From a virus (Duplodnaviria > Heunggongvirae > Uroviricota > Caudoviricetes), in IMG/VR virus record IMGVR_UViG_3300011338_000526: a DNA stretch of 64,000 nucleotides; one strand, written 5' to 3'. Position 1 is the first letter of the stretch, and each line of letters opens with the position of its first letter. Shown piece by piece: positions 6,871 through 51,184 of the stretch. Both the position numbers and the translations under genes were made by a program. The notes below the pieces were generated by a model. It saw only the letters and a list, made by a program, of their open reading frames with translations. It was not told where the DNA came from and ran no database searches.

Positions 6871-8583
6871 ATGAAGCTGTTCGGATTTGAATTCCAACGC
6901 AAAGTGCCAGTAGACACTACTCCGTCGTTTGCCCCAAAAGAGGCAGATGACGGGGCAGTAGTCGTTGCTGCTGGCGGCGCGTATGGAACGTATGTCGATC
7001 TAGATGGGACGGTTCGAACAGAGGCTGAGTTAGTAACAAAGTACAGAGAGATGTCGCTACAGCCGGAGATTGACTCCGCTGTCGATGAAATTATCAACGA
7101 ATCAATCGCAATTGATGAAGAAGACATTGTCAACATCATCCTTGATAACCTCACGGTATCTGACAAGATCAAGAAGGCAATCCGTGAAGAGTTTGTTAAT
7201 GTTCTAAACATCCTCAACTTCCAATCAAGAGCATATGAGATTTACCGTCGTTGGTATATTGATGGTAGACTCTACTATCATGTTATCATCGATGAGAAAG
7301 ATGTGAAGGCTGGTATCAAAGAGATTCGATACGTAGACCCAAGAAAGATCCGCAAGGTTCGCGAAGTAGCCAAGAGAAGAGTTCCTGGCGGCGAAGGCGG
7401 AGAAGCTATTGTTCCGAAGGTTCAGAATGAATACTTCATCTTCAATGACAAAGGTTTCAACTACGGCAACAAGGTAGTCGGGACGACAACTTCCGGTATG
7501 AAGATTGCCAAGGACTCTGTTGTGTATATCACTTCAGGGTTGACTGATACGCAAGGCACAATGGTCCTTTCGTATCTACACAAATCAATTAAGGCTATCA
7601 ACCAGCTGCGCACGCTTGAAGACGCTCTTGTAATCTATCGTCTCGCCCGCGCTCCCGAAAGAAGAATCTGGTACATCGACGTTGGTAACTTGCCTAAGAT
7701 GAAGGCTGAGCAATATGTTCGCGACATCATGGTCAAGCATAAGAATCGACTGATATACAACGGTGATACAGGCGAGGTCAGAGATGACCGCAAGTTCATG
7801 ACGATGCTTGAGGATTACTGGCTGCCGAGACGTGAGGGCGGTCGCGGTACTGAAGTCACCACACTTCCTGGCGGTCAGACACTTGGTCAAATGGATGACG
7901 TTCTATATTTTCAAAAGAAGCTATACCAGACGCTCAATGTCCCAGTCAACAGATTGAATTCGGATGCATTGTTCTCGCTTGGACGTGCTACAGAAGTTAC
8001 AAGAGACGAATTGAAGTTTTCAAAGTTCATTTCGAGACTTCGCGGTCGCTTCAGCGTGTTGTTTACTAATCTACTTGAAAAGCAGCTTGTACTTAAGGGC
8101 ATTATGTCAATCGAAGATTGGCAAAACATTGCTTCCGATATCAAGTATGACTTCGCCAAGGACAACTATTTCACTGAGCTGAAGAACGCCGAAGTGATGC
8201 AGAACCGCGCGCAGCTTATGATGACAGTTGAGCAGGGCGGGTTGCTTGGTAAGTATTACTCGCATGAATGGGCTCGCAAGAATATCCTGCAGCAGTCCGA
8301 TGACATGATCGAAGAACAAGACAAACTGATTGAAGGCGAGCAGGATGATCCTAGATGGAATCCTCCTCCAATGGACGAGAACGGAAATCCTTTACCGCAA
8401 GATGATGATGGCGCTCCTCAAGGAGATGACGCGGGAGCAGCACCCGAGGACGATCAAGATAAGAAAATCAGAGAAGCTGAAGCTACAGTAAAGCTCATGA
8501 AAGAAAAGGGCGCGGAGAATCGCTCTATGCAGGATGAAGCTAAATATAGATCAGCTATCCAAATCCTATCCAGAAACAAATAA
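6871..8583 (+). CDS. gp20: Portal vertex protein
   Basis: WYIDGRLYYH, IYRLARAPERRIWYIDVGN, EDYWLPRREGGRGTEVTTLPGG. Confidence 0.97.
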   Translation: MKLFGFEFQRKVPVDTTPSFAPKEADDGAVVVAAGGAYGTYVDLDGTVRTEAELVTKYREMSLQPEIDSAVDEIINESIAIDEEDIVNIILDNLTVSDKIKKAIREEFVNVLNILNFQSRAYEIYRRWYIDGRLYYHVIIDEKDVKAGIKEIRYVDPRKIRKVREVAKRRVPGGEGGEAIVPKVQNEYFIFNDKGFNYGNKVVGTTTSGMKIAKDSVVYITSGLTDTQGTMVLSYLHKSIKAINQLRTLEDALVIYRLARAPERRIWYIDVGNLPKMKAEQYVRDIMVKHKNRLIYNGDTGEVRDDRKFMTMLEDYWLPRREGGRGTEVTTLPGGQTLGQMDDVLYFQKKLYQTLNVPVNRLNSDALFSLGRATEVTRDELKFSKFISRLRGRFSVLFTNLLEKQLVLKGIMSIEDWQNIASDIKYDFAKDNYFTELKNAEVMQNRAQLMMTVEQGGLLGKYYSHEWARKNILQQSDDMIEEQDKLIEGEQDDPRWNPPPMDENGNPLPQDDDGAPQGDDAGAAPEDDQDKKIREAEATVKLMKEKGAENRSMQDEAKYRSAIQILSRNK

Positions 8584-42150: not shown

Positions 42151-42226
42151 GCCCACTTAGCCCAGCGGAAGAGGCACAGGTCTTAAAAACCTTCAAGGGC
42201 GGGTTCGAATCCCGCAGTGGGTACCA
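42151..42226 (+). tRNA. trnL: tRNA-Leu(TAA), short variable arm
   Basis: Cloverleaf; loop CTTAAAA; CCA. Confidence 0.8.
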
Positions 42227-42232
42227 ACTTGG

Positions 42233-42306
42233 GTCGGTGAAGTGTTACGGTAGCACGGCAGTCTCCAAAACTGCAGGCGTAGGTTCGACTCCTACCACCC
42301 TCGCCA
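42233..42306 (+). tRNA. trnW: tRNA-Trp(CCA), two acceptor-stem mismatches
   Basis: GCAGT-CTCCAAA-ACTGC; TTCGACT; CCA. Confidence 0.75.
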
Positions 42307-42388
42307 ACATTAACAAGTTTTAATAAATTACTGCTTGACTTTTTTATCGAACCGGGCTATAATGGCTTATAAGATGAGGAACGAACGA

Positions 42389-42637
42389 ATGCGATATATG
42401 CTTTTTGCCGGCGATAACTACTACCCCTGCGGCGGTATGGATGACTTTCGTGGGCGTTTCGATACGTTGACTGAGCTGATGAAGAACATCGGTCGGGCTG
42501 ACTGGTTCAATGTGTATGACACTGTTCGGGACGAGACTGTGGTTTGCCCCGATATCCGTATGATGAACGCTCAGCAGATTCGCGATTGGGCTGACGAAGA
42601 AGAACGCCTCGCTTCTGTTGACGATATGTGTCGGTAA
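42389..42637 (+). CDS. Hypothetical early protein
   Basis: MRYMLFAGDNYYPCGGMDDF; promoter and RBS. Confidence 0.65.
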   Translation: MRYMLFAGDNYYPCGGMDDFRGRFDTLTELMKNIGRADWFNVYDTVRDETVVCPDIRMMNAQQIRDWADEEERLASVDDMCR

Positions 42638-42644
42638 TTGTTAC

Positions 42645-42720
42645 GGATCCTTAGTTCAGTTGGCAGAACACTGCACTTTTAATGCATATGTCCTGGGTTC
42701 GAGTCCCAGAGGATCCTCCA
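42645..42720 (+). tRNA. trnK: tRNA-Lys(TTT)
   Basis: Loop CTTTTAA; CCA. Confidence 0.9.
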
Positions 42721-42810
42721 AAAATTAACATTTCTTAACAAAATAGTCCTTGACTTATTTCTCAAACTAGGTTATAATGGCTTATAAGATGAGAACGAAA
42801 GGAATTCGAA

Positions 42811-42987
42811 ATGTCTGAGTATCATGTTCAGTGGCAGGATAGCGCGGGTTGGCGTACCTGTATTACGCTGAGTGCCTCTAACGGTCCTGAGCGTCTGCTT
42901 CAGGAAATGAAGAGTGCCCAGTCTTGCTACCCTGGTTATCGAATCCGAGTCGTGGACGACAACGGTCGTCTTATCGATTCTCTCTGA
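42811..42987 (+). CDS. Small hypothetical early protein
   Basis: Manual ORF MSEYHVQWQDSAGWRTC...; promoter and AAGGA RBS. Confidence 0.6.
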   Translation: MSEYHVQWQDSAGWRTCITLSASNGPERLLQEMKSAQSCYPGYRIRVVDDNGRLIDSL

Positions 42988-42993
42988 AGGAGT

Positions 42994-43203
42994 GTGAAGA
43001 TGACTGGTCATGATGCCGATCGTCAAGTCAATAATATGGTTGGCGTAGCTTCCCTAGCTATCGCACTTACTGTGGTGGCTGCTTGGGTGACTCACGTCTT
43101 GATTTCGATTAAGGCATCCGCCTGGATCCTTCTTGTCGTAGGCATCTTCGTGCCTCCTATTGGCTGGGTTCACGGAATTGGGGTTTGGTTCGGTCTAGTC
43201 TGA
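42994..43203 (+). CDS. Small membrane protein
   Basis: Two hydrophobic segments; G...PPIGWVHG.G.W. Confidence 0.6.
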   Translation: MKMTGHDADRQVNNMVGVASLAIALTVVAAWVTHVLISIKASAWILLVVGIFVPPIGWVHGIGVWFGLV

Positions 43204-43284
43204 CTCAAAAAAGTCCTTGACTTATTTCCCGGACTAGGCTATACTGACTGAGTTGAATGAGTTTACAGTTTGATAAATAACTCG

Positions 43285-43326
43285 GAATGAGTGTCGAAGC
43301 CCATTCTTTCTTTCGCTCTTTGACAA
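43285..43326 (+). promoter_or_regulatory. boxB-like hairpin plus rrn-type boxA (GCTCTTTGACAA)
   Basis: Hairpin 43285-43306 and boxA 43315-43326 lie between promoter 43217-43245 and the first tRNA of the main array. Confidence 0.55.
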
Positions 43327-43338
43327 TTTAATAATTAT

Positions 43339-43413
43339 GGACGAGTAGCTCAGAGGCAGAGCGGCTGGCTCTTAACCAGCGGGTCGGGATTTCGAAATTC
43401 CCCTCGTTCACCA
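43339..43413 (+). tRNA. trnK: tRNA-Lys(CTT)
   Basis: GCTGG-CTCTTAA-CCAGC; CCA. Confidence 0.9.
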
Positions 43414-43415
43414 TT

Positions 43416-43490
43416 GGATCCTTGGTCGATTGGCTTAGGCACAGGTCTGCAAAATCTGTTAGAGTGGTTCGATTCCACTAGGATCCTCCA
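43416..43490 (+). tRNA. trnC: tRNA-Cys(GCA)
   Basis: Loop CTGCAAA; CCA. Confidence 0.9.
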
Positions 43491-43495
43491 AGTTT

Positions 43496-43587
43496 GGGCA
43501 AGTTGATGCTATGGTGTGTGCATCCCCTGACTGTAAATCAGGTCCCATCGGGTAAACATTGTTGGTTCGACTCCGACCTTGCCCATA
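43496..43587 (+). tRNA. trnY: tRNA-Tyr(GTA)
   Basis: CCTGA-CTGTAAA-TCAGG; long variable arm; no encoded CCA. Confidence 0.8.
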
Positions 43588-43600
43588 TCCTTTCTAGTTG

Positions 43601-43608
43601 TATAAATA
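43601..43608 (+). promoter_or_regulatory. Late promoter inside the tRNA array
   Basis: TATAAATA. Confidence 0.6.
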
Positions 43609-43624
43609 CGTTACGCAAGAATTT

Positions 43625-43700
43625 TGGTTAGTAGCTCAGTTGGTAGAGCAGGTGACTGTTAATCACCGGGTCACAGGTTCGAGTCCTGTCTAGCCAGCCA
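43625..43700 (+). tRNA. trnN: tRNA-Asn(GTT)
   Basis: GGTGA-CTGTTAA-TCACC; CCA. Confidence 0.92.
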
Positions 43701-43705
43701 GAATT

Positions 43706-43780
43706 GCCCGCAAAGCATACGTGGCGATGCAGGGGTTTTGTAAACCTCAGAACTTGGTTCGATTCCGAGTGCGGGCACCA
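43706..43780 (+). tRNA. trnT: tRNA-Thr(TGT)
   Basis: Loop TTTGTAA; CCA. Confidence 0.88.
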
Positions 43781-43783
43781 GTC

Positions 43784-43877
43784 TCCTACGCTGTAGGATA
43801 GCAGTCGGTGGCTTAAGATGGTGTCTTAAGATATTGTGGGCTAACCACCTACAGCCGAGTATCGCTACAGCGTAGGA
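43784..43877 (+). ncRNA. Unclassified structured RNA
   Basis: Perfect 13-bp terminal stem with internal hairpins. Confidence 0.45.
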
Positions 43878-43887
43878 CCAGAGTTTC

Positions 43888-43963
43888 GCTTCTGTAGCTC
43901 AGTTGGGAGAGCAGAGTGTTGATAACACTCAGGTCGTTGGGTCGGGACCAACCAGAAGCACCA
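43888..43963 (+). tRNA. trnI: tRNA-Ile(GAT), atypical T-loop GTCGGGA
   Basis: GAGTG-TTGATAA-CACTC; CCA. Confidence 0.85.
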
Positions 43964-44013
43964 GACTAACTTGTATAGCTGCTAGGAGCCGCATTGAGCT
44001 ATATAAGAGCAAG

Positions 44014-44085
44014 ACGGGGCATCCAGTTTCCTGTGCGGAGCAGGAGATTATGGTTGCAGCTGATAAGCTTCTATCGCCCGTACCA
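44014..44085 (+). ncRNA. CCA-ending tRNA-like element
   Basis: ACGGG pairs with CCCGT followed by ACCA; internal hairpins; no canonical T-loop. Confidence 0.35.
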
Positions 44086-44089
44086 TTTT

Positions 44090-44179
44090 GGACGTGACAT
44101 CGGGCGATGACAAGGGCTTTATATTCCCTTTGCAGCTGATTACTGCTTGGATAGGGTTCGATTCCCTACACGTCTACCA
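44090..44179 (+). ncRNA. Non-canonical type II tRNA-like RNA with 9-nt anticodon loop CTTTATATT
   Basis: Acceptor GGACGTG/CACGTCT-ACCA; T-arm TAGGG-TTCGATT-CCCTA; variable arm GCAG/CTGC; tetraloop D-arm. Confidence 0.6.
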
Positions 44180-44182
44180 GTT

Positions 44183-44645
44183 TGTGGTAAGGAAAGTCTA
44201 TTCGGAAGGTAGCGCTGCCAGGGCTGAATAGAATCGGACTGATCATCCGTAAAAGGAGAATGGGCACTTTATCGGAAGGTTATGCAGGGCATAACAAATT
44301 AGGTAAAGAGATACCTCACCTGCCACAATTGATTGCTCGGTTTCGAGCGCACACCTCAAAGACTACCAGGATCAAATGGGCTCTCCTGGTTCAAGATGAC
44401 TGCTGGTTGACCGATAAATCCACCCATGGATTGCAGGGCTCTGGTCTTTGATACTTGTTTGATCTGGATACGGAGTGCATAGCGCCCGTCGTTTATTGAG
44501 AATTCCGGACGACATACGAGCCGAACAACGTGAGGCTCAGCCGATTTCAGTTCCCGTGCCTAGTAGGCTCTAACAGACCGGAAAATGTTAGTGCGAAGAG
44601 CATTGAGGGGAGAGCCTGCTGGCGGGCTAAGTAAAATTCACCAGC
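44183..44645 (+). ncRNA. Large (~470 nt) multi-stem RNA, GOLLD/ROOL-class candidate
   Basis: Many nested stems; bounded by tRNA-like elements; no credible ORF. Confidence 0.55.
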
Positions 44646-44652
44646 ACCTTTT

Positions 44653-44724
44653 GCGGGATTCGTATAAAGGCTATTACCTCAGTCTTCCAAACTGATGATA
44701 GGAGTTCGATTCTCCTATTCCGCT
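44653..44724 (+). tRNA. trnG: tRNA-Gly(TCC)
   Basis: TCAGT-CTTCCAA-ACTGA; no encoded CCA. Confidence 0.85.
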
Positions 44725-44733
44725 TTCCTAATT

Positions 44734-44805
44734 GGCTCTCGAGCAGGTGCTCAGATCGATTTCATAAGTCGATCGTGGTTGGATCGTTACCAACGAGAGC
44801 CTCCA
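44734..44805 (+). tRNA. Compact non-canonical tRNA with CAT anticodon (Met or Ile2)
   Basis: GGCTCTC/GAGAGCC-TCCA; D-arm GAGC-AGGT-GCTC; 7-bp anticodon stem; loop TTCATAA. Confidence 0.6.
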
Positions 44806-44851
44806 CTACAGTTTGCAATAGGAATAAATAACTAAAAGAAGGAACGACAGT

Positions 44852-45157
44852 TTGGCTTACATACGTTTCTCGGAGATTCCATTTGCAAGCGATGATGACA
44901 GAATTGTCTGTGAAGCACTTTACAAATCCATTTGCGAAGCAGAAGATGACCTGATCGATGCTGAGGATCTCTTAGATCGTCTTAACGCTATGGTAGGTAA
45001 GAAAGAAATGACTACGCTGGGCTTACCAAACGTTATCATGCTTGGTAAGATCCTGATGGGTCTGAAGGTTGCTTTCTGGTACTACTCTGGAGTCTCTCCA
45101 GCCGACATACTAGATGATCTTACAGATATTGAGGTCATCGACATTTTTAATCCTTGA
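44852..45157 (+). CDS. Hypothetical protein
   Basis: TTG start with AAGGA RBS. Confidence 0.55.
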   Translation: MAYIRFSEIPFASDDDRIVCEALYKSICEAEDDLIDAEDLLDRLNAMVGKKEMTTLGLPNVIMLGKILMGLKVAFWYYSGVSPADILDDLTDIEVIDIFNP

Positions 45158-45188
45158 CTTATGAGTGAAACCATAGTATAAATACAGT

Positions 45189-45432
45189 GTTGCCGTTGAT
45201 AGCGATCAAATAGGTTGTCCAAGACTCGGGTGCGACTCCCGAAATCTCCACCATATGGGGATTAAGCAGATTTCGATTGGCGTCGTTAAGGGTCGAAGTA
45301 GGTAATGGGTAAGACACGACCCTCAATCAGTTCAAAACAGTAAATGCAAACGATAACGTTGCATTCGAGACAGCACTAGCGGCTTGATCTTGACGGGTTT
45401 ACGGTTGTACCTTGGAACAGAAACAACCGACC
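45189..45432 (+). ncRNA. ssrA: Two-piece (circularly permuted) tmRNA, tag ANDNVAFETALAA
   Basis: Acceptor piece ending AATCTCC-ACCA (45253); 3-nt spacer; coding piece starting GGGGATT (45257) giving G3-U70; tag frame 45346-45387. Outer ends approximate. Confidence 0.9.
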
Positions 45433-45437
45433 AGATT

Positions 45438-45529
45438 GGAAGAATGGCTGAGTCTGGCTTAAAGCACCGCACTTGAAATGCGGCGTACTGTGAAAGGTAC
45501 CGTGGGTTCAAATCCTACTTCTTCCGCCA
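45438..45529 (+). tRNA. trnS: tRNA-Ser(TGA)
   Basis: CCGCA-CTTGAAA-TGCGG; long variable arm; CCA. Confidence 0.92.
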
Positions 45530-45539
45530 ATCCTTTGTT

Positions 45540-45713
45540 ATGGGAATGAACATGAGCTATTCGATCGACGTTCTTAAGAAGTCCGCCTTTCAACACGAGC
45601 TTATGAGCATCTTAGCCTTAGAAGCCGAAGAGAATAGAGACGAGACTTGGGTGATTGTTCAAGATTATTTCAAGGCTCGCATAAAAGAGCTTGACGTAGC
45701 GACGAAACGATAG
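45540..45713 (+). CDS. Small hypothetical protein
   Basis: Manual ORF, 57 aa; its 3' end contains the next promoter. Confidence 0.45.
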   Translation: MGMNMSYSIDVLKKSAFQHELMSILALEAEENRDETWVIVQDYFKARIKELDVATKR

Positions 45714-45729
45714 TATAATACGTTATTAC

Positions 45730-45806
<77 letters not shown>

Positions 45807-45810
45807 TTTT

Positions 45811-45885
45811 GGGAGATTAGCTCAGAGGTAGAGCTCCTGCTTTACACGCAGATTGTCGGCGGTTCGATCCCGTCATCTCCCACCA
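45811..45885 (+). tRNA. trnV: tRNA-Val(TAC)
   Basis: Loop TTTACAC; CCA. Confidence 0.9.
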
Positions 45886-45891
45886 AGTTTT

Positions 45892-46008
45892 GGACGTGAT
45901 GTTGTAGAGTTCGAATCTCTAATGACTAGCAATAGTCGTCCCTGGCGGGCTAGACTAAGGTGACGGGATTGCGCATCCCATTCGGTTCGATTCCGGGCAC
46001 GTCCACCA
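45892..46008 (+). ncRNA. 117-nt tRNA-like RNA with extra arms
   Basis: GGACGTG/CACGTCC-ACCA; T-arm; second T-loop-like hairpin TAGAG-TTCGAAT-CTCTA; no clear anticodon arm. Confidence 0.6.
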
Positions 46009-46013
46009 ATTTT

Positions 46014-46089
46014 GCCACCTTGGTATAGCTGGTGCGTACATACGCCTGAAGAGCGTGGGGACTCTGTTCGATTCAGAGAGGTGGCACCA
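46014..46089 (+). tRNA. trnF: tRNA-Phe(GAA)
   Basis: TACGC-CTGAAGA-GCGTG; CCA. Confidence 0.9.
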
Positions 46090-46095
46090 CATTTT

Positions 46096-46296
46096 ATGGA
46101 GACTAGAGTGGAAACGAAAGAGATTGTTCTTTGTCCGACTTGTAACGGATCGGGTCAGACCTCATATGAGGAATGTGTTGATTACCATAAGAGGGACTAT
46201 GAGACGATCTATGAAACCTGCAAGCGTTGCGATGGCACAGGTCGTCTGAAGAAGATTACGGTTGTTACGCTCGAAAAGCTTACACCGAGGAGTTAA
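46096..46296 (+). CDS. DnaJ-type zinc-finger small protein
   Basis: CPTCNGSG...CKRCDGTG; start could be GTG 46108. Confidence 0.7.
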   Translation: METRVETKEIVLCPTCNGSGQTSYEECVDYHKRDYETIYETCKRCDGTGRLKKITVVTLEKLTPRS

Positions 46297-46297
46297 T

Positions 46298-46368
46298 TGC
46301 CTGATAGTTTAACGGTAGAACTCTGGTTTTTGGTACCAGGTATCCTCGTTCGAATCGAGGTCGGGCAT
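46298..46368 (+). tRNA. trnQ: tRNA-Gln(TTG)
   Basis: CTGGT-TTTTGGT-ACCAG; no encoded CCA. Confidence 0.8.
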
Positions 46369-46386
46369 TCATCTAAGGAGGATCCA

Positions 46387-46587
46387 TTGAGAGAAAGTGG
46401 TCGTTCTATCCGTCGTCATAATCGCGAGCGGATGAAGAGGAAGGCAGAGGTTGTTACAGCCAAGTGGGGTTGTAACCTATCAGTCAGCAAGCTAGCTGAC
46501 AACCTAGCCTTCTGTTCCTGTTCAATGTGTGGTAATCCTAGACGATGGTTTAAGAAAAAGACCATACAAGAGTTAAAGTCAGAATAG
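46387..46587 (+). CDS. Small basic Cys-containing phage protein
   Basis: CSCSMCGNPRR; TTG start with GGAGG RBS. Confidence 0.6.
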   Translation: MRESGRSIRRHNRERMKRKAEVVTAKWGCNLSVSKLADNLAFCSCSMCGNPRRWFKKKTIQELKSE

Positions 46588-46588
46588 C

Positions 46589-46664
46589 TGCCCACTAGAT
46601 CAACTGGAAGATCGCCTGTCTCTGAAACAGGAGGTTCCTCGTTCGAACCGAGGGTGGGCATCCA
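46589..46664 (+). tRNA. trnQ: tRNA-Gln(CTG)
   Basis: CCTGT-CTCTGAA-ACAGG; CCA. Confidence 0.9.
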
Positions 46665-46672
46665 AAGTTTAC

Positions 46673-46755
46673 GCTCTCGTATCCACCCTGACTACGAATC
46701 AGGAGTAAGGTAACTGGATAGGAAGATGCAGGTTCGAATCCTGTCGGGAGCTCCA
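46673..46755 (+). tRNA. Non-canonical tRNA-Arg(ACG) lacking a conventional D-arm
   Basis: GCTCTCG/CGGGAGC-TCCA; CCTGA-CTACGAA-TCAGG; TATCCA pairs with downstream TGGATA. Confidence 0.65.
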
Positions 46756-46759
46756 TATT

Positions 46760-46836
46760 GCGCATGTGATGAAATTGGTAAACATACTGGTCTTAGAAAC
46801 CAGGTCTTGGGGGTTCAAGTCCCTCCATGCGCACCA
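46760..46836 (+). tRNA. trnL: tRNA-Leu(TAG), short variable arm
   Basis: CTGGT-CTTAGAA-ACCAG; CCA. Confidence 0.85.
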
Positions 46837-46875
46837 ACCTTTTATTATGACAACAACAAGTGATGGAGATATATT

Positions 46876-47883
46876 ATGCGTCGTGTTCTTCTTGCCTGCA
46901 CTATTTTGATGTCTGTAACTCTTTCGGCTCATGCTCAGGATCGAGTCAGCCCGAAGGCTATTAACACTGGCGGTCCAGCTGGCGCTTACCACAGCACTTT
47001 CTGCCCGCCAATCCCGAATGTTCTTTCGAACGCTTACTTCCAGGGTTATGCGTGCACTCCCTCGGCTGGTACGGTTCAGAATATCCAGCGAGTCCTTCAG
47101 CAGCCTACGAATATCGGGTTTGCTCAGCTTGATGTGTTTGCTCGTGAAGCGAGCCAGCGCCCTGCAGAGTTTGAGCGTCTCTCGCTGATTCGTACGGACA
47201 TTGCCTGCGAGGGTCTCTGGATGGTGACTAAGAACCCCGATATCGACTTTGGTCGCGTTCTTGGTCTTGCTCGTCGAATTCAGTGGGTTCTTCCTCCTCA
47301 GGGAAGTGGTTCTACTGCCAGCTTCAACTACCTGCGCTCTATCGATCCGGATGGTCTCGGTCGAGTTCCTGATACCAACATCACCTATATGAATGATGCG
47401 ACTTCGGTCCTCAATCGTATTGCTGACTCTACGAATGGTGAAGTTGGCTTCTTTGTTCAGTTTGCCGATCCTCGTAACGCTAACATTCGCTTGATTGCTG
47501 AGCGCGGTCTTCGGGTGATTCCGGTGATTAGCCGAGAGATCCTTCGTGCTAATGTTGGTGGAACTCAGGTCTATCAGGCTCAGACCTTCCAGCTGACTCA
47601 GGGCGGAATGTTCGGTATCGGTGGACGTGCCCAGACTGCTACGACTGCTTGCACTCCGGTTGCTGTCTTTACCGGTTCATCTGCAGCCTTCTCGGAACGT
47701 AACGGTCAGGATGATGCTCGTGAGTTGATTGCCCGAGTACAGGCTGTGCCTCGTAATTCGCTGATGCCTCAGGACAATGCCATCCAGGCTATCCTCAATG
47801 GCGCCACTCGCCTGAGTCAGAGTGCTATTGACAATGCGATTGCTGGTGTAGAGGCGGCACGTCGTTCGGTGGAGAATCGGTAA
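46876..47883 (+). CDS. TAXI-family TRAP solute-binding-like protein
   Basis: Signal peptide ending AHA; INTGGPAGAYH; S.G...N...V; GFAQLD; GSGS motif. Confidence 0.6.
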   Translation: MRRVLLACTILMSVTLSAHAQDRVSPKAINTGGPAGAYHSTFCPPIPNVLSNAYFQGYACTPSAGTVQNIQRVLQQPTNIGFAQLDVFAREASQRPAEFERLSLIRTDIACEGLWMVTKNPDIDFGRVLGLARRIQWVLPPQGSGSTASFNYLRSIDPDGLGRVPDTNITYMNDATSVLNRIADSTNGEVGFFVQFADPRNANIRLIAERGLRVIPVISREILRANVGGTQVYQAQTFQLTQGGMFGIGGRAQTATTACTPVAVFTGSSAAFSERNGQDDARELIARVQAVPRNSLMPQDNAIQAILNGATRLSQSAIDNAIAGVEAARRSVENR

Positions 47884-48308
47884 TGATCAGTCGTATCTCC
47901 ATCTGGTGGTGGTTTGCGATTATTCTAACTCTGGTCTACAGTTTCTACAATCCAGTCGGTTTCAGCCTATATCATATGTGGGCTGGAACGGAGAATCTTG
48001 ATAACGTTTCGTTCAAGACTCTGCTGACGGTGGCTCTACTAACGGTCCTTGGATTGATCGCGTATGGCACATATCAGGCGATCACGGTCTATGGTTTAGC
48101 CGTGATTGTCGGGATTGTAGGAATCGTCCTTTGGTGCGTTAACGAGTTTGTTACGCTCTCGGTATTCAGCCCAACGTTCTTTGCCTGGGCTACTCAACCG
48201 ATCGTCGCTGTCATCCTTACTATCGGATGGCAGTGGCCAAAGATCTGGCGCTCGGCTACTGGTACGGTTACGACCGACGATATTGATAACCATCATCACC
48301 ATGCCTAA
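47883..48308 (+). CDS. Four-TM membrane protein
   Basis: Hydrophobic segments; coupled to the TAXI-like gene; His-rich C-terminus. Confidence 0.65.
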   Translation: MISRISIWWWFAIILTLVYSFYNPVGFSLYHMWAGTENLDNVSFKTLLTVALLTVLGLIAYGTYQAITVYGLAVIVGIVGIVLWCVNEFVTLSVFSPTFFAWATQPIVAVILTIGWQWPKIWRSATGTVTTDDIDNHHHHA

Positions 48309-48573
48309 AGATTCTCCTTTCAAGAAGAAGCTTCAGAGAATCCAAGGCAAGATGCAGAAACTTCACGATGAGCTAAAAAGTTTGCGTGAAGAGTGCCCGC
48401 ACCAGAATTTGACGTATAAGTATGGTGGTGATAGTGGCAACTACGATCGATCGCAAGATTGTTATTGGATCGATTGGGGCTGTAGCGACTGTGATAAGCG
48501 TTGGACGACAAGTCAGGATAATTCGTATCATCTCACGAGTGTCGTCTATCCGCACGCAATAAGAATTAGATAA
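48301..48573 (+). CDS. Hypothetical protein (CPH, CxxC)
   Basis: MPKDSPFKKK...ECPH...GNYD...YW...CSDC. Confidence 0.6.
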   Translation: MPKDSPFKKKLQRIQGKMQKLHDELKSLREECPHQNLTYKYGGDSGNYDRSQDCYWIDWGCSDCDKRWTTSQDNSYHLTSVVYPHAIRIR

Positions 48574-48580
48574 CGTTTAT

Positions 48581-48655
48581 GGCGGTGTTAGCTCAAAGGA
48601 AGAGCACTGGTTTGTGACGCCAGGGATACGGTTTCGAGATCCGTACATCGCCCCA
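48581..48655 (+). tRNA. trnH: tRNA-His(GTG) with G-1
   Basis: Loop TTGTGAC; C73; CCA. Confidence 0.9.
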
Positions 48656-48658
48656 TTA

Positions 48659-48805
48659 GTTGATACCAGCGCGCGAAAGCGGACTAACCATCTACCCCAC
48701 TCACTAGGGGACGTCACGATCCTGACTCTATCATTGTGGTAGTGATCGAGAGCAGGAGGGCAGGGCTAAGGACCAGCTCTTAAACGTGAAGTGAGTGGTA
48801 TCGAC
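48659..48805 (+). ncRNA. Unclassified multi-stem RNA (~147 nt)
   Basis: 10-bp terminal stem, GAAA tetraloop, several nested helices. Confidence 0.5.
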
Positions 48806-48817
48806 ATGTATTTTTAA

Positions 48818-48893
48818 GGGGGCATAACTCAGTTGGTAGAGTGTTAGCTTTGCAAGCTAAATGTCGTCGGTTCGATCCCGACTGCTTCCACCA
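48818..48893 (+). tRNA. trnA: tRNA-Ala(TGC)
   Basis: TTAGC-TTTGCAA-GCTAA; G3-U70; CCA. Confidence 0.92.
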
Positions 48894-48900
48894 CTTTTAA

Positions 48901-48978
48901 TGCGGAGTAGAGCAGTCTGGTAGCTCGTCAGCCTCATAAGCTGAAGGTCGTTGGTTCAAATCCAGCCTCTCGCATCCA
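48901..48978 (+). tRNA. trnM: tRNA-Met(CAT), fMet-like body with bulged acceptor stem
   Basis: TCAGC-CTCATAA-GCTGA; CCA; lacks the three anticodon-stem G-C pairs of initiator tRNA. Confidence 0.85.
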
Positions 48979-48982
48979 ATTT

Positions 48983-49056
48983 GCTCTATTCGTTTAATGG
49001 TAGGACGTTCCCCTGTCCAGGGAATAGCAGCGGTTCGATTCCGCTATAGAGCGCCA
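48983..49056 (+). tRNA. trnD: tRNA-Asp(GTC)
   Basis: TTCCC-CTGTCCA-GGGAA; CCA. Confidence 0.85.
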
Positions 49057-49058
49057 GT

Positions 49059-49144
49059 ATTGTGTGTCTAGCTGACGAGCGAAAGCCCATTGAAGTTGAG
49101 TAGAGAAGTCGCGCTCTCGAGGGGATGGAGGGTTGATACACAAT
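49059..49144 (+). ncRNA. Unclassified structured RNA (~86 nt)
   Basis: 10-bp terminal stem; GC-GAAA-GC; CCATT/GATGG. Confidence 0.4.
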
Positions 49145-49152
49145 CGCGTTTT

Positions 49153-49242
49153 GGAAGGATGGCTGAGAGGTCTAAAGCACTCGGTTGCTAACTGAGCGAT
49201 CCTTAATCGGGTCCGTGGGTTCGAATCCCACTTCTTCCGCCA
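49153..49242 (+). tRNA. trnS: tRNA-Ser(GCT)
   Basis: CTCGG-TTGCTAA-CTGAG; long variable arm; CCA. Confidence 0.92.
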
Positions 49243-50621: not shown

Positions 50622-50747
50622 ATGCGTGAACCGAATGTGCTCGATATTATTGGCGCGTTTTGCAATTTTTGTTTCTACGTCGTCGCCCCGCTCGGCTGCA
50701 TCGTCGGCATCGCGTTGGTTTTGCTTGATCTCGTGGGCTTGATTTAA
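50622..50747 (+). CDS. Small single-TM early protein
   Basis: Manual ORF, 41 aa; promoter and GAGGAG RBS. Confidence 0.55.
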   Translation: MREPNVLDIIGAFCNFCFYVVAPLGCIVGIALVLLDLVGLI

Positions 50748-50828
50748 ATTAACAAATTTTAACAAAATAGTCCTTGACTTTTTTTCAAAACCAAGCTATA
50801 ATGGCTTTATAGGAAAAGGAACAGATAA

Positions 50829-51101
50829 ATGACCGCTAACGAAATCTCTAAGGCTATCCTCGCTCTTTCGTCCTTCGACGATATTCGGGCAGTTTCCGCT
50901 GCCCTGAAGATCCGGCACCGGGAGCTGCAGCAGCGCGCTGCCTGGACCCTCGGCGTGGGTTCGAAGGTTCAGTTTCAGGATAAGCTGGGTCGAACGATCA
51001 TCGGCGCTGTCACGAAGATCAACTCTAAGACCGTTCAGGTTCGGGCTGACGGCAACTTCGCTACCTGGCGGGTGACGCCGAGCCTTCTTCGGGCTGCGTA
51101 A
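50829..51101 (+). CDS. Hypothetical early protein (SH3/KOW-like C-terminus)
   Basis: L.VG.KV.F...G.VTKIN.KTV.V...WRV.PSLL. Confidence 0.65.
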   Translation: MTANEISKAILALSSFDDIRAVSAALKIRHRELQQRAAWTLGVGSKVQFQDKLGRTIIGAVTKINSKTVQVRADGNFATWRVTPSLLRAA

Positions 51102-51184
51102 AATTAACAAAAAAATAACAAAATAGTCCTTGACTTATTTCTGAAACCAGGTTATAATGGTTTTATAAGATGAGAGGAATTGAG

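Follow-up and report, generated by a model that had tools for sequence, protein, structure and literature searches.

What does a non-coding interval of about 470 nucleotides (nt) encode when it lies inside the transfer RNA (tRNA) island of a phage: one large RNA, or several small ones? The interval in question, positions 44179 to 44652 of a 64,000-nt stretch of the virus record IMGVR_UViG_3300011338_000526 (this whole stretch is called the window here), is bounded by a tRNA-like gene (44090-44178) and a tRNA-Gly gene (44653-44724). An earlier note, made from the window sequence alone, had described a single structured non-coding RNA of ~470 nt. The interval is indeed non-coding and structured, and it belongs to the tRNA island of a T4-like phage, but it does not behave as one unit. 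We estimate the probability at roughly four in five that it consists of four independent genes for small structured RNAs arranged in tandem, named R-A, R-B, R-C and R-D, of ~95-156 nt each:

44179-44334, + strand: R-A, a 156-nt small RNA with a four-way junction, extended form of a widespread family (128.7 bits with model R1; seven close variants, 64 distinct members)
44354-44459, + strand: R-B, an RNA of ~105 nt; hairpin CCAGGA/TCCTGG, then a junction closed by CTGC/GCAG with GGT/ACC and ATCCA/TGGAT
44452-44549, + strand: R-C, an RNA of ~95 nt; helix TCTGG/CCGGA and hairpin GAGCC/GGCTC, the loop of which varies
44544-44652, + strand: R-D, an RNA of ~110 nt abutting tRNA-Gly; blocks AGTTCCCGT and TGAGGGGAGAGCCTG, terminal hairpin GCTGG/CCAGC with loop GGGCTAAGTAAA

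The Four Units Are Separable in Related Phages

When the 472 nt were folded as a single sequence, the minimum free energy (MFE) was no better than that of dinucleotide shuffles (z of -0.70 for the + strand and -1.69 for the − strand), and a 260-nt stretch likewise folded no better than its shuffles. The helices listed in the earlier note are therefore not beyond chance on the window sequence alone. Since fold energy was uninformative, the question was settled with related sequences, comprising related loci (L numbers) and contigs of four other DNA runs (X numbers) that were aligned to the stretch and show presence and rearrangement only. With blastn, 43964-44652 had no match among cultured phages at an E-value of 1e-5, and a relaxed E-value produced short-core matches only. 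The 101-amino-acid (aa) protein encoded just downstream of the array has homologs in a few metagenomic contigs and no relatives in IMG/VR, while in relatives of a 335-aa neighbour protein (L001-L006) the array region is missing.

Comparison of these sequences establishes the modularity, structure and genomic placement of the four predicted units. In the best relatives, L009 and L010, the downstream protein is 82% identical. L009 aligns to 44090-44391 at 81% identity and to 44393-44806 at 97%, and at ~44392 it carries ~600 base pairs (bp) extra, with a minus-strand gene matching homing-endonuclease families, which splits R-B after its first hairpin. The window order is kept in L022, with a ~440-bp insertion containing a 108-aa open reading frame (ORF) at ~44453. 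In X13, 44454-44548 (R-C) is replaced by 348 other letters. X15 has ~123 nt extra at ~44455, and 76 letters in place of 44543-44652 (R-D). In X16 the GAGCC hairpin runs straight into tRNA-Gly. The order in L029 is altogether different: a tRNA-Ile(UAU)-like gene, the R-C homolog, tRNA-Gly(GCC), the R-B homolog, ~4.3 kb of other DNA, the R-A homolog and tRNA-Leu. In L111 and L087 an R-D homolog lies directly 5' of tRNA-Ser. No covarying helix joins one unit to another. Thus, the units come and go independently in relatives, where they are separated, reordered, individually replaced or split by insertions, and a single 470-nt RNA is largely refuted. Nor is the 5' extension to 43964 that the earlier note had considered supported: L009 and L022 lack 43964-44089, and a tRNA-like gene of its own occupies 44090-44178.

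Some features of the insertions are of interest in themselves. The L009 gene (6921-7454, − strand), inside R-B, encodes a 177-aa homing-endonuclease-like protein (phrog_314, E-value 1.3e-11, and a faint NUMOD3 match). To the right of the gene, 414 bp match the window at 97% identity, versus ~81% for the neighbouring DNA; this tract may have arisen by co-conversion, which brings to mind segB in the tRNA cluster of T4. The 108-aa ORF of L022 (921-1247) has no match in PHROGs and stands exactly at the R-B/R-C boundary, where 123-348 nt of different sequence are found in runs X13 and X15.

R-A Is a Covarying Four-Way Junction

R-A corresponds to domain 1 of the earlier note. Its parts are as follows:

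44182-44188, + strand: 5' strand of P1, TTGTGGT, pairing with GCCACAA at 44322-44328
44197-44233, + strand: variable hairpin P2, stem 44197-44203 with 44227-44233
44236-44250, + strand: hairpin P3, CGGA-CTGATCA-TCCG, with a palindromic loop; 4 of 4 stem pairs covary among extended forms
44255-44260, + strand: 5' strand of P4, AGGAGA, pairing with TCACCT at 44316-44321 around an A.A mismatch
44261-44315, + strand: internal loop ATGGGCA/AGATACC around P5, the stem of which pairs 44268-44272 with 44304-44308

Seven distinct close variants (set A5) were obtained by an exact-pattern scan of IMG/VR and metagenome contigs. Plain MAFFT alignment followed by RNAalifold misaligned the variable hairpins; helices were defined by hand, and pairs were then counted. 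Three blocks are invariant in A5, and two hairpins are replaced wholesale yet still paired. With the hand-defined structure 96.8% of cells were paired, compared to 35-52% when the partners were slid by 1-3 columns, and 11 pairs were changed on both sides, compared to 0-3 in the slid controls.

All five R-A helices covary. In P1, five of the eight pairs are double-changed across 33 minimal-form members (for example, AAATGG/CCATTT and TAAGAGG/CCTCTTA). For P1 and P5 of these 33 minimal forms (set A7), the covariation score was 0.363, versus 0.02-0.12 for slid controls, a value that none of 500 shuffles reached. Among extended forms (set A6), 21 of 28 pairs show double changes. P2 has them in six of seven pairs in A5 and in all seven in A6, and P5 in all pairs. 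The loop-proximal pair of P4 is A-U, G-C (L026 and the Ralstonia phage RSP15) or C-G (L022), and its outer pair, otherwise A-U, becomes C-G in Vibrio phage 1.121.O and in RSP15. The segments GGAG, AUGGG, AUACC and CACC are unchanged in members outside the search pattern.

The R-A consensus consists of P1, a joiner U-AAGGAAAG-U followed by AAA, P4, the loop AUGGGCA/AGAUACC and the variable hairpin P5. In the minimal form (~80 nt) the joiner is purine-rich (UAAGGAAAGUAAA), and P4 is AGGAGA/UCACCU with the A.A mismatch; in extended forms P2 and P3 are inserted within the joiner. The window element has the family core, i.e., P1, the UAAGGAAAGU joiner, AAA(A/C)GGAG(N)AUGGG, a hairpin, (G)AUACC(N)CACC and P1, with all helices present; models R1 and R2 gave it 128.7 and (local) 39.7 bits, respectively.

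The earlier note had drawn several of these helices from the letters alone. The closing helix TGTGGT/GCCACA, TCTATTC/GAATAGA and the CGGA-CTGATCA-TCCG hairpin are borne out by compensatory changes in relatives. Its AGGT/ACCT helix has to be redrawn, ACCT being instead part of the covarying GGAG/CACC helix, and GGTAGC/GCTGCC and TTATGC/GCATAA are specific to the window, located in the tips of variable hairpins.

A palindrome of at least 6 nt is present in the P3 loop of 10 of 16 distinct hairpins, where 1.7 would be expected (no shuffle out of 2000 reached 10). These palindromes are TGATCA (UGAUCA), TAATTA (UAAUUA) and GTCGCGAC (GUCGCGAC in RNA letters); since the sequences are related, they represent perhaps three independent events. 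The occurrence of different palindromes at the same position points to self-complementary loop-loop pairing, and the extended R-A forms probably dimerise by loop-loop kissing through P3.

R-A Belongs to a Widespread Family That Occupies tRNA Slots

The relaxed BLAST search matched an unannotated spot in Cobetia phage Carin-5, which R1 aligned at 59.9 bits as a shorter form lacking P2 and P3. A gapped core pattern was found in 88 IMG/VR stretches; these were selected with the exact core, so core invariance among them proves little. With other loci included, there are 64 distinct R-A elements, about 38 of them minimal (~80 nt) and 24 extended (~135-155 nt). Three cultured phages carry R-A, namely Carin-5, Vibrio phage 1.121.O and RSP15 (R2 scores of 66.8 bits for each of the latter two), and in all three, as in a complete 352-kb phage, it is single-copy.

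R-A stands alone between tRNAs in L015-L019, L021, L024, L026 and L028-L030. The short hairpin that follows it in the window is missing where R-A stands alone:

44335-44348, + strand: hairpin GCTCG-GTTT-CGAGC between R-A and R-B, kept in L009 and with loop GCAA in L022

A tRNA gene was found within 2.5 kb of 59 of the 64 elements, and none within that distance of the other five. In 38 of 64 a tRNA on the same strand, most commonly tRNA-Asp, has its 3' end 0-2 nt upstream of the element start, and in 29 of 64 the next tRNA begins within 30 nt downstream, usually after 4-8 nt. R-A thus fills a "tRNA slot". The Carin-5 element, ~2 kb from the nearest tRNA, has a TATAAT box of its own and a hairpin and U-tract terminator.

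In Rfam scans of the whole window at gathering scores and of 43780-44830 at E-values up to 10, only tRNAs, a two-piece transfer-messenger RNA (tmRNA) and noise were seen. The earlier note had suggested a GOLLD-like RNA; in this check, which that note had itself proposed, the interval is neither GOLLD- nor ROOL-like: GOLLD (RF01998) had no match in either scan, nor had ROOL (RF03087) at E-values up to 10 in 43780-44830, where Rfam 15 gave zero matches to either. RNase P RNA, group I intron and self-cleaving ribozyme models matched neither the window form nor the minimal form at E-values up to 10. The tRNA model (RF00005) had no match inside 44181-44652 at the same threshold, and ARAGORN called no tRNA there. 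The minimal R-A form from Carin-5 had no Rfam family match at E-values up to 10. A P3+GGAG pattern gave 18 matches in cellular genomes, all at chance level under R1, and a literature search found no description of these RNA motifs. R-A thus matches no Rfam family, and the unit families appear to be undescribed.

Three likenesses to known RNAs were considered and rejected. RNase P RNA was suggested by GGAAAGTC, which resembles CR-I; there was no model match, and the stretch continues into the covarying local hairpin P2. Within the R-A family GGAAAGTC varies (as GTAAAGTC and GAAAAGT). The hammerhead-like combination of CTGATCA, GAAA and GTC has the wrong topology and no model match, and a CsrA sponge was dismissed because the first GGA is not conserved.

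In L069, L053, L101 and similar loci another unit, starting with AGTTTTGT, lies directly 3' of a minimal R-A. This suggests further tandem tRNA-slot RNAs with a shared 5' leader, which may be a processing signal.

R-B, R-C and R-D

The earlier note had treated the 3' part of the interval as belonging to a giant RNA. Domain 1 is found alone between tRNAs in many phages, and the 3' part resolves into three further units. Homologs of R-B were detected with nhmmer in L022, L029 (directly after tRNA-Gly(GCC)), L121, L105 and L130 as conserved blocks, with compensatory changes in three stems: CCAGGA/UCCUGG versus GCCAGA/UCUGGC, AUCCA/UGGAU versus AACCA/UGGUU, and GGU/ACC versus GGC/GCC. R-C has homologs in L009, L022 and L029 (in the last between the tRNA-Ile(UAU)-like gene and tRNA-Gly), and its helix UCUGG/CCGGA is UCUAG/CUAGA in L022 and UCUGG/CCAGA in L029. 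Homologs of R-D (L009, L022, L111 and L087) keep AGUUCCCGU and UGAGGGGAGAGCCUG (RNA letters), and the terminal stem, CUGG/CCAG in the window, is UCGG/CCGA in L111 and L087. Exact-pattern scans of IMG/VR with three patterns for the 3' units gave no matches.

Among the helices that the earlier note had assigned to this part, CCAGGA/TCCTGG, ATCCA/TGGAT and GCTGG/CCAGC hold, with compensatory changes in relatives. GTCGT/ACGAC is not conserved, and TCTGG/CCGGA is a better helix, which covaries. AGGCTCT/AGAGCCT is not supported: it contains one wobble and one mismatch in L022, and the alignment of L111 and L087 shows no counterpart of its 5' arm. For GCTCG/CGAGC and GAGCC/GGCTC, only the loops vary in relatives; pairing is consistent, and the stems carry no covariation information.

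Weighing the Alternatives

Several points count against four independent RNA genes. R-B, R-C and R-D rest on just three to six distinct sequences each. Either the split R-B of L009 is a dead copy, or R-B consists of two separate modules, its first hairpin and its junction domain. In the 88 stretches the R-A core is invariant partly by construction, and this invariance is tested only by six off-pattern members (L022, L024, L026, Carin-5, Vibrio phage 1.121.O and RSP15). Against flanking DNA at ~81%, 44393-44652 is 99% identical to L009, which may reflect recent exchange rather than constraint. R-A dimerisation and the R-A partner proposed below are predictions. Finally, the stretch occurs in no run on record as RNA, so that transcripts, their ends and their stability are predicted.

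The alternatives fare considerably worse. One large ornate RNA of ~470 nt (44180-44650), GOLLD- or ROOL-like or of a new giant class, in which the insertions would occupy tolerant peripheral loops, would agree with an interval that is non-coding and helix-rich throughout, and contiguous in the window and, bar one insertion, in L022; the MFE fold even pairs a CTGCTGG run starting near 44401 with CCAGCA at 44641-44646. This is now very improbable given the missing GOLLD and ROOL matches, a fold energy no better than that of shuffles, the presence of R-A alone in dozens of phages, the reordered units of L029 with tRNAs and 4.3 kb between them, the close relatives that lack or replace R-C or R-D while keeping the rest, and the absence of a covarying helix between units. 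It is equally hard to credit that the interval holds DNA-level features or drift, i.e., homing-endonuclease targets, co-conversion tracts, recombination cassettes or decayed tRNA genes with no RNA function. The endonuclease-like gene inside the L009 interval with its adjoining 97%-identical tract would fit such an origin, the island is an insertion hot spot, and palindromes of the TGATCA type could be protein-binding DNA sites. Compensatory double changes occur, however, in every R-A helix and in the stems of R-B, R-C and R-D, and selection must therefore have acted on RNA pairing and not on DNA sequence; the interval contains no match to the tRNA model, and R-A is also present in phage lineages showing no nearby endonuclease gene.

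Rather unlikely, in our judgement, is a cis role of the units on the tRNA precursor, as guides for processing by RNase P, E or III, as folding spacers or as antitermination elements. The tight fit between tRNAs, with gaps of 0-2 nt on the 5' side and ~6 nt on the 3' side, the lack of a + strand terminator-like site in 43245-45113 and the similar GTTT(T)G with which several non-tRNA units start just after CCA are what one would expect of such a role. It does not explain the R-A of Carin-5, which stands alone at ~2 kb from the nearest tRNA and has a −10 box and a terminator of its own, or the five of 64 elements with no tRNA within 2.5 kb. The ~45 near-invariant nt shared by phages of alpha-, beta- and gamma-proteobacteria exceed what a spacer or a cleavage site needs, and R-A is present in one copy per genome even though the arrays hold 10-26 tRNAs. 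A small protein, initiated in R-A at AGGAG-A-ATG or encoded by the only sizeable ORF (44260-44451, 63 aa), has a probability close to nil. A Shine-Dalgarno-like AAGGAG does immediately precede the nearly invariant ATGGG, but the spacing from GGAG to ATG is 1 nt, and the frame varies from 3 to 63 codons with no conserved peptide past Met-Gly. The ATG is ATT in L024, and in L009, L016, L022 and L026 the frame meets a stop after 3-8 codons. The hairpin downstream covaries, as an RNA structure would, and the 63-aa product has no match in PHROGs. The claim of the earlier note that there is no credible coding sequence is thus upheld: the interval has no conserved ORF, its sole sizeable one being broken in relatives.

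Processing, Function and Known Systems

By analogy with the species 1 and 2 RNAs of T4, the best reading of the four units is as small RNAs cut from a tRNA precursor. The array is probably co-transcribed with the tRNAs, as suggested by a promoter-like site at 43217-43245 in the window and by the next + strand terminator-like site occurring only at 45113. Nucleases that process tRNAs would then probably release the units. The 3' end of each unit would be set by RNase P cutting at the following tRNA, and the 5' end by RNase P, or RNase E/Z, cutting just after the CCA of the preceding tRNA. For this latter cut RNase P is a candidate, since its substrates include hairpin RNAs, among them 4.5S RNA and T4 species 1 RNA.

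The T4 RNAs, whose function is unknown, are released with tRNAs by RNase P-dependent processing. They provide the best analogy for how the four units may be made: these 119-139-nt non-tRNA RNAs (rnaC and rnaD; NC_000866, 70908-71171) adjoin tRNA genes inside a phage tRNA cluster, and the window units similarly occupy a tRNA slot. The T4 cluster also contains the homing endonuclease gene segB, a setting like that of the L009 insertion. Homology to R-A is unsupported by either search: with filters off, the best R1 hit in the T4 tRNA region had an E-value of 0.48 and lay elsewhere in the locus, and R2 gave no match in the whole T4 genome. The rnaD RNA ends in CCA, whereas R-A has a 3' tail such as UUGAUU and no CCA. 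By eye, rnaD and R-A both hold GGUAAG, CGGACUGAU and GUAAGGA, a likeness with no statistical support.

The precursor of Escherichia coli 4.5S RNA, the RNA of the signal recognition particle (SRP), and the C4 RNA of phages P1 and P7 are irregular hairpins and non-tRNA substrates of RNase P, which generates their 5' ends. The minimal R-A may be likened to them as a long irregular hairpin starting right after a tRNA CCA, with RNase P cleavage predicted only; R-A has no sequence or motif similarity to them, and no Rfam SRP match. GOLLD and ROOL are large single units of roughly 600-800 nt. Like the array, they are phage-associated non-coding RNAs often located near tRNA genes; unlike GOLLD, which is one contiguous conserved unit, the array consists of four separable ones of 95-156 nt. 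Both self-assemble into homo-oligomers (PMC12286853), and the palindromic P3 loop suggests self-association of R-A as well. YrlA-type Y RNA (RF02553) is another small structured phage RNA with its 5' and 3' ends in a closing helix, as in R-A. Its model had no match in the window at gathering scores or in 43780-44830 at E-values up to 10, R-A has no T-loop or D-loop mimic, and no Ro60/TROVE-like domain was found in the ten largest unassigned ORFs of the window, which is part of a genome of ~156 kb.

As to function, the near-invariant joiner, P4 and internal loop of R-A would form a binding surface, most likely for a partner that is itself conserved, either in the alpha-, beta- and gamma-proteobacterial hosts or in their phages. 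This partner may be a component of the translation apparatus. A link to translation initiation is favoured, at about one chance in four, because P4 pairs a Shine-Dalgarno-like GGAG with a sequence like the 3' tail of 16S rRNA. It is unlikely, though worth stating, that R-A defines a new functional class among phage RNAs, either catalytic or directed at the ribosome. In the ribosome-directed version, a mimic of the Shine-Dalgarno/anti-Shine-Dalgarno helix would dock on the 30S subunit or on a translation factor and reprogram initiation during infection; the P4 centre, where C-A-C faces G-A-G and includes an A.A pair, also looks like the decoding-site loop of 16S rRNA. In the catalytic version, a small self-cleaving ribozyme would cut its own 5' edge and mature the 3' end of the preceding tRNA. 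Both versions would fit ~45 near-invariant nt framed by hairpins that vary freely, and an element start 0-2 nt after CCA.

Since T4, phage tRNA clusters have been known to include a few stable non-tRNA RNAs, the purpose of which is unknown after fifty years. The present data suggest that the phenomenon is much broader, with at least four unrelated small RNA families that behave as interchangeable genes and travel through the tRNA arrays of large phages, aquatic T4-like ones among them. The R-A core, present in at least 88 stretches of IMG/VR and in three cultured phages that infect gamma- and beta-proteobacteria, is conserved about as strongly as universal RNAs, and its conservation across hosts indicates a conserved target. 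With Carin-5, Vibrio phage 1.121.O and RSP15 in culture, the R-A question is directly testable. For annotation, the "gaps" in phage tRNA islands should be regarded as RNA genes.

The Phage and Its tRNA Island

The window comes from an uncultured T4-like phage, as seen from genes for portal gp20, capsid gp23, terminase, UvsW and DNA polymerase gp43. Comparison of its tail sheath protein gave 54% identity with Stenotrophomonas phage DLP_6 and 47-49% with Caulobacter phage Cr30 and Sinorhizobium phage phiM12, and contig L008 (JGI Ga0153702_1002) is 100% identical to the window phage. ARAGORN called 22 tRNAs in the window, at 42151-49242.

The tRNA-like gene at 44090-44178 was missed by ARAGORN and matched a tRNA-Sec model weakly (26.8 bits). 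Its anticodon loop has 9 nt (CTTTATATT), its variable arm is long, and CCA is encoded. L009 and L022 keep the gene at 93-96% identity, and L056-type contigs keep it in part. It appears to be a relative of the 94-nt tRNA-Ile(UAU) genes flanking R-A in phages of the L015 type. The 126 nt between this gene and tRNA-Ile(GAU), at 43964-44089, are missing from L009 and L022 and unmatched in all loci compared.

Another tRNA-shaped element, at 44734-44805, has a CAT anticodon, an anticodon stem of ~7 bp, a 3-bp D stem and a non-canonical T loop. It is uncalled by ARAGORN in the window; the L009 homolog (7897-7968) is called tRNA-Met, and further homologs are present in L011, L016 and others. At 45150-45432 lies a circularly permuted two-piece tmRNA of the alpha-proteobacterial type (102 bits with the Rfam model tmRNA_permuted, 69 bits with alpha_tmRNA), the L009 homolog of which has the tag AANDNAAFETALAA. 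A repeat of 40-90 nt is found at 42306-42397, 42721-42812, 43206-43249, 50746-50824 and 51100-51174, with copies 76-90% identical to one another and many more in L009. One window copy overlaps the promoter-like site at 43217-43245, and the repeat recalls the gene-shuffling promoter/stem-loop cassettes of T4-type phages.

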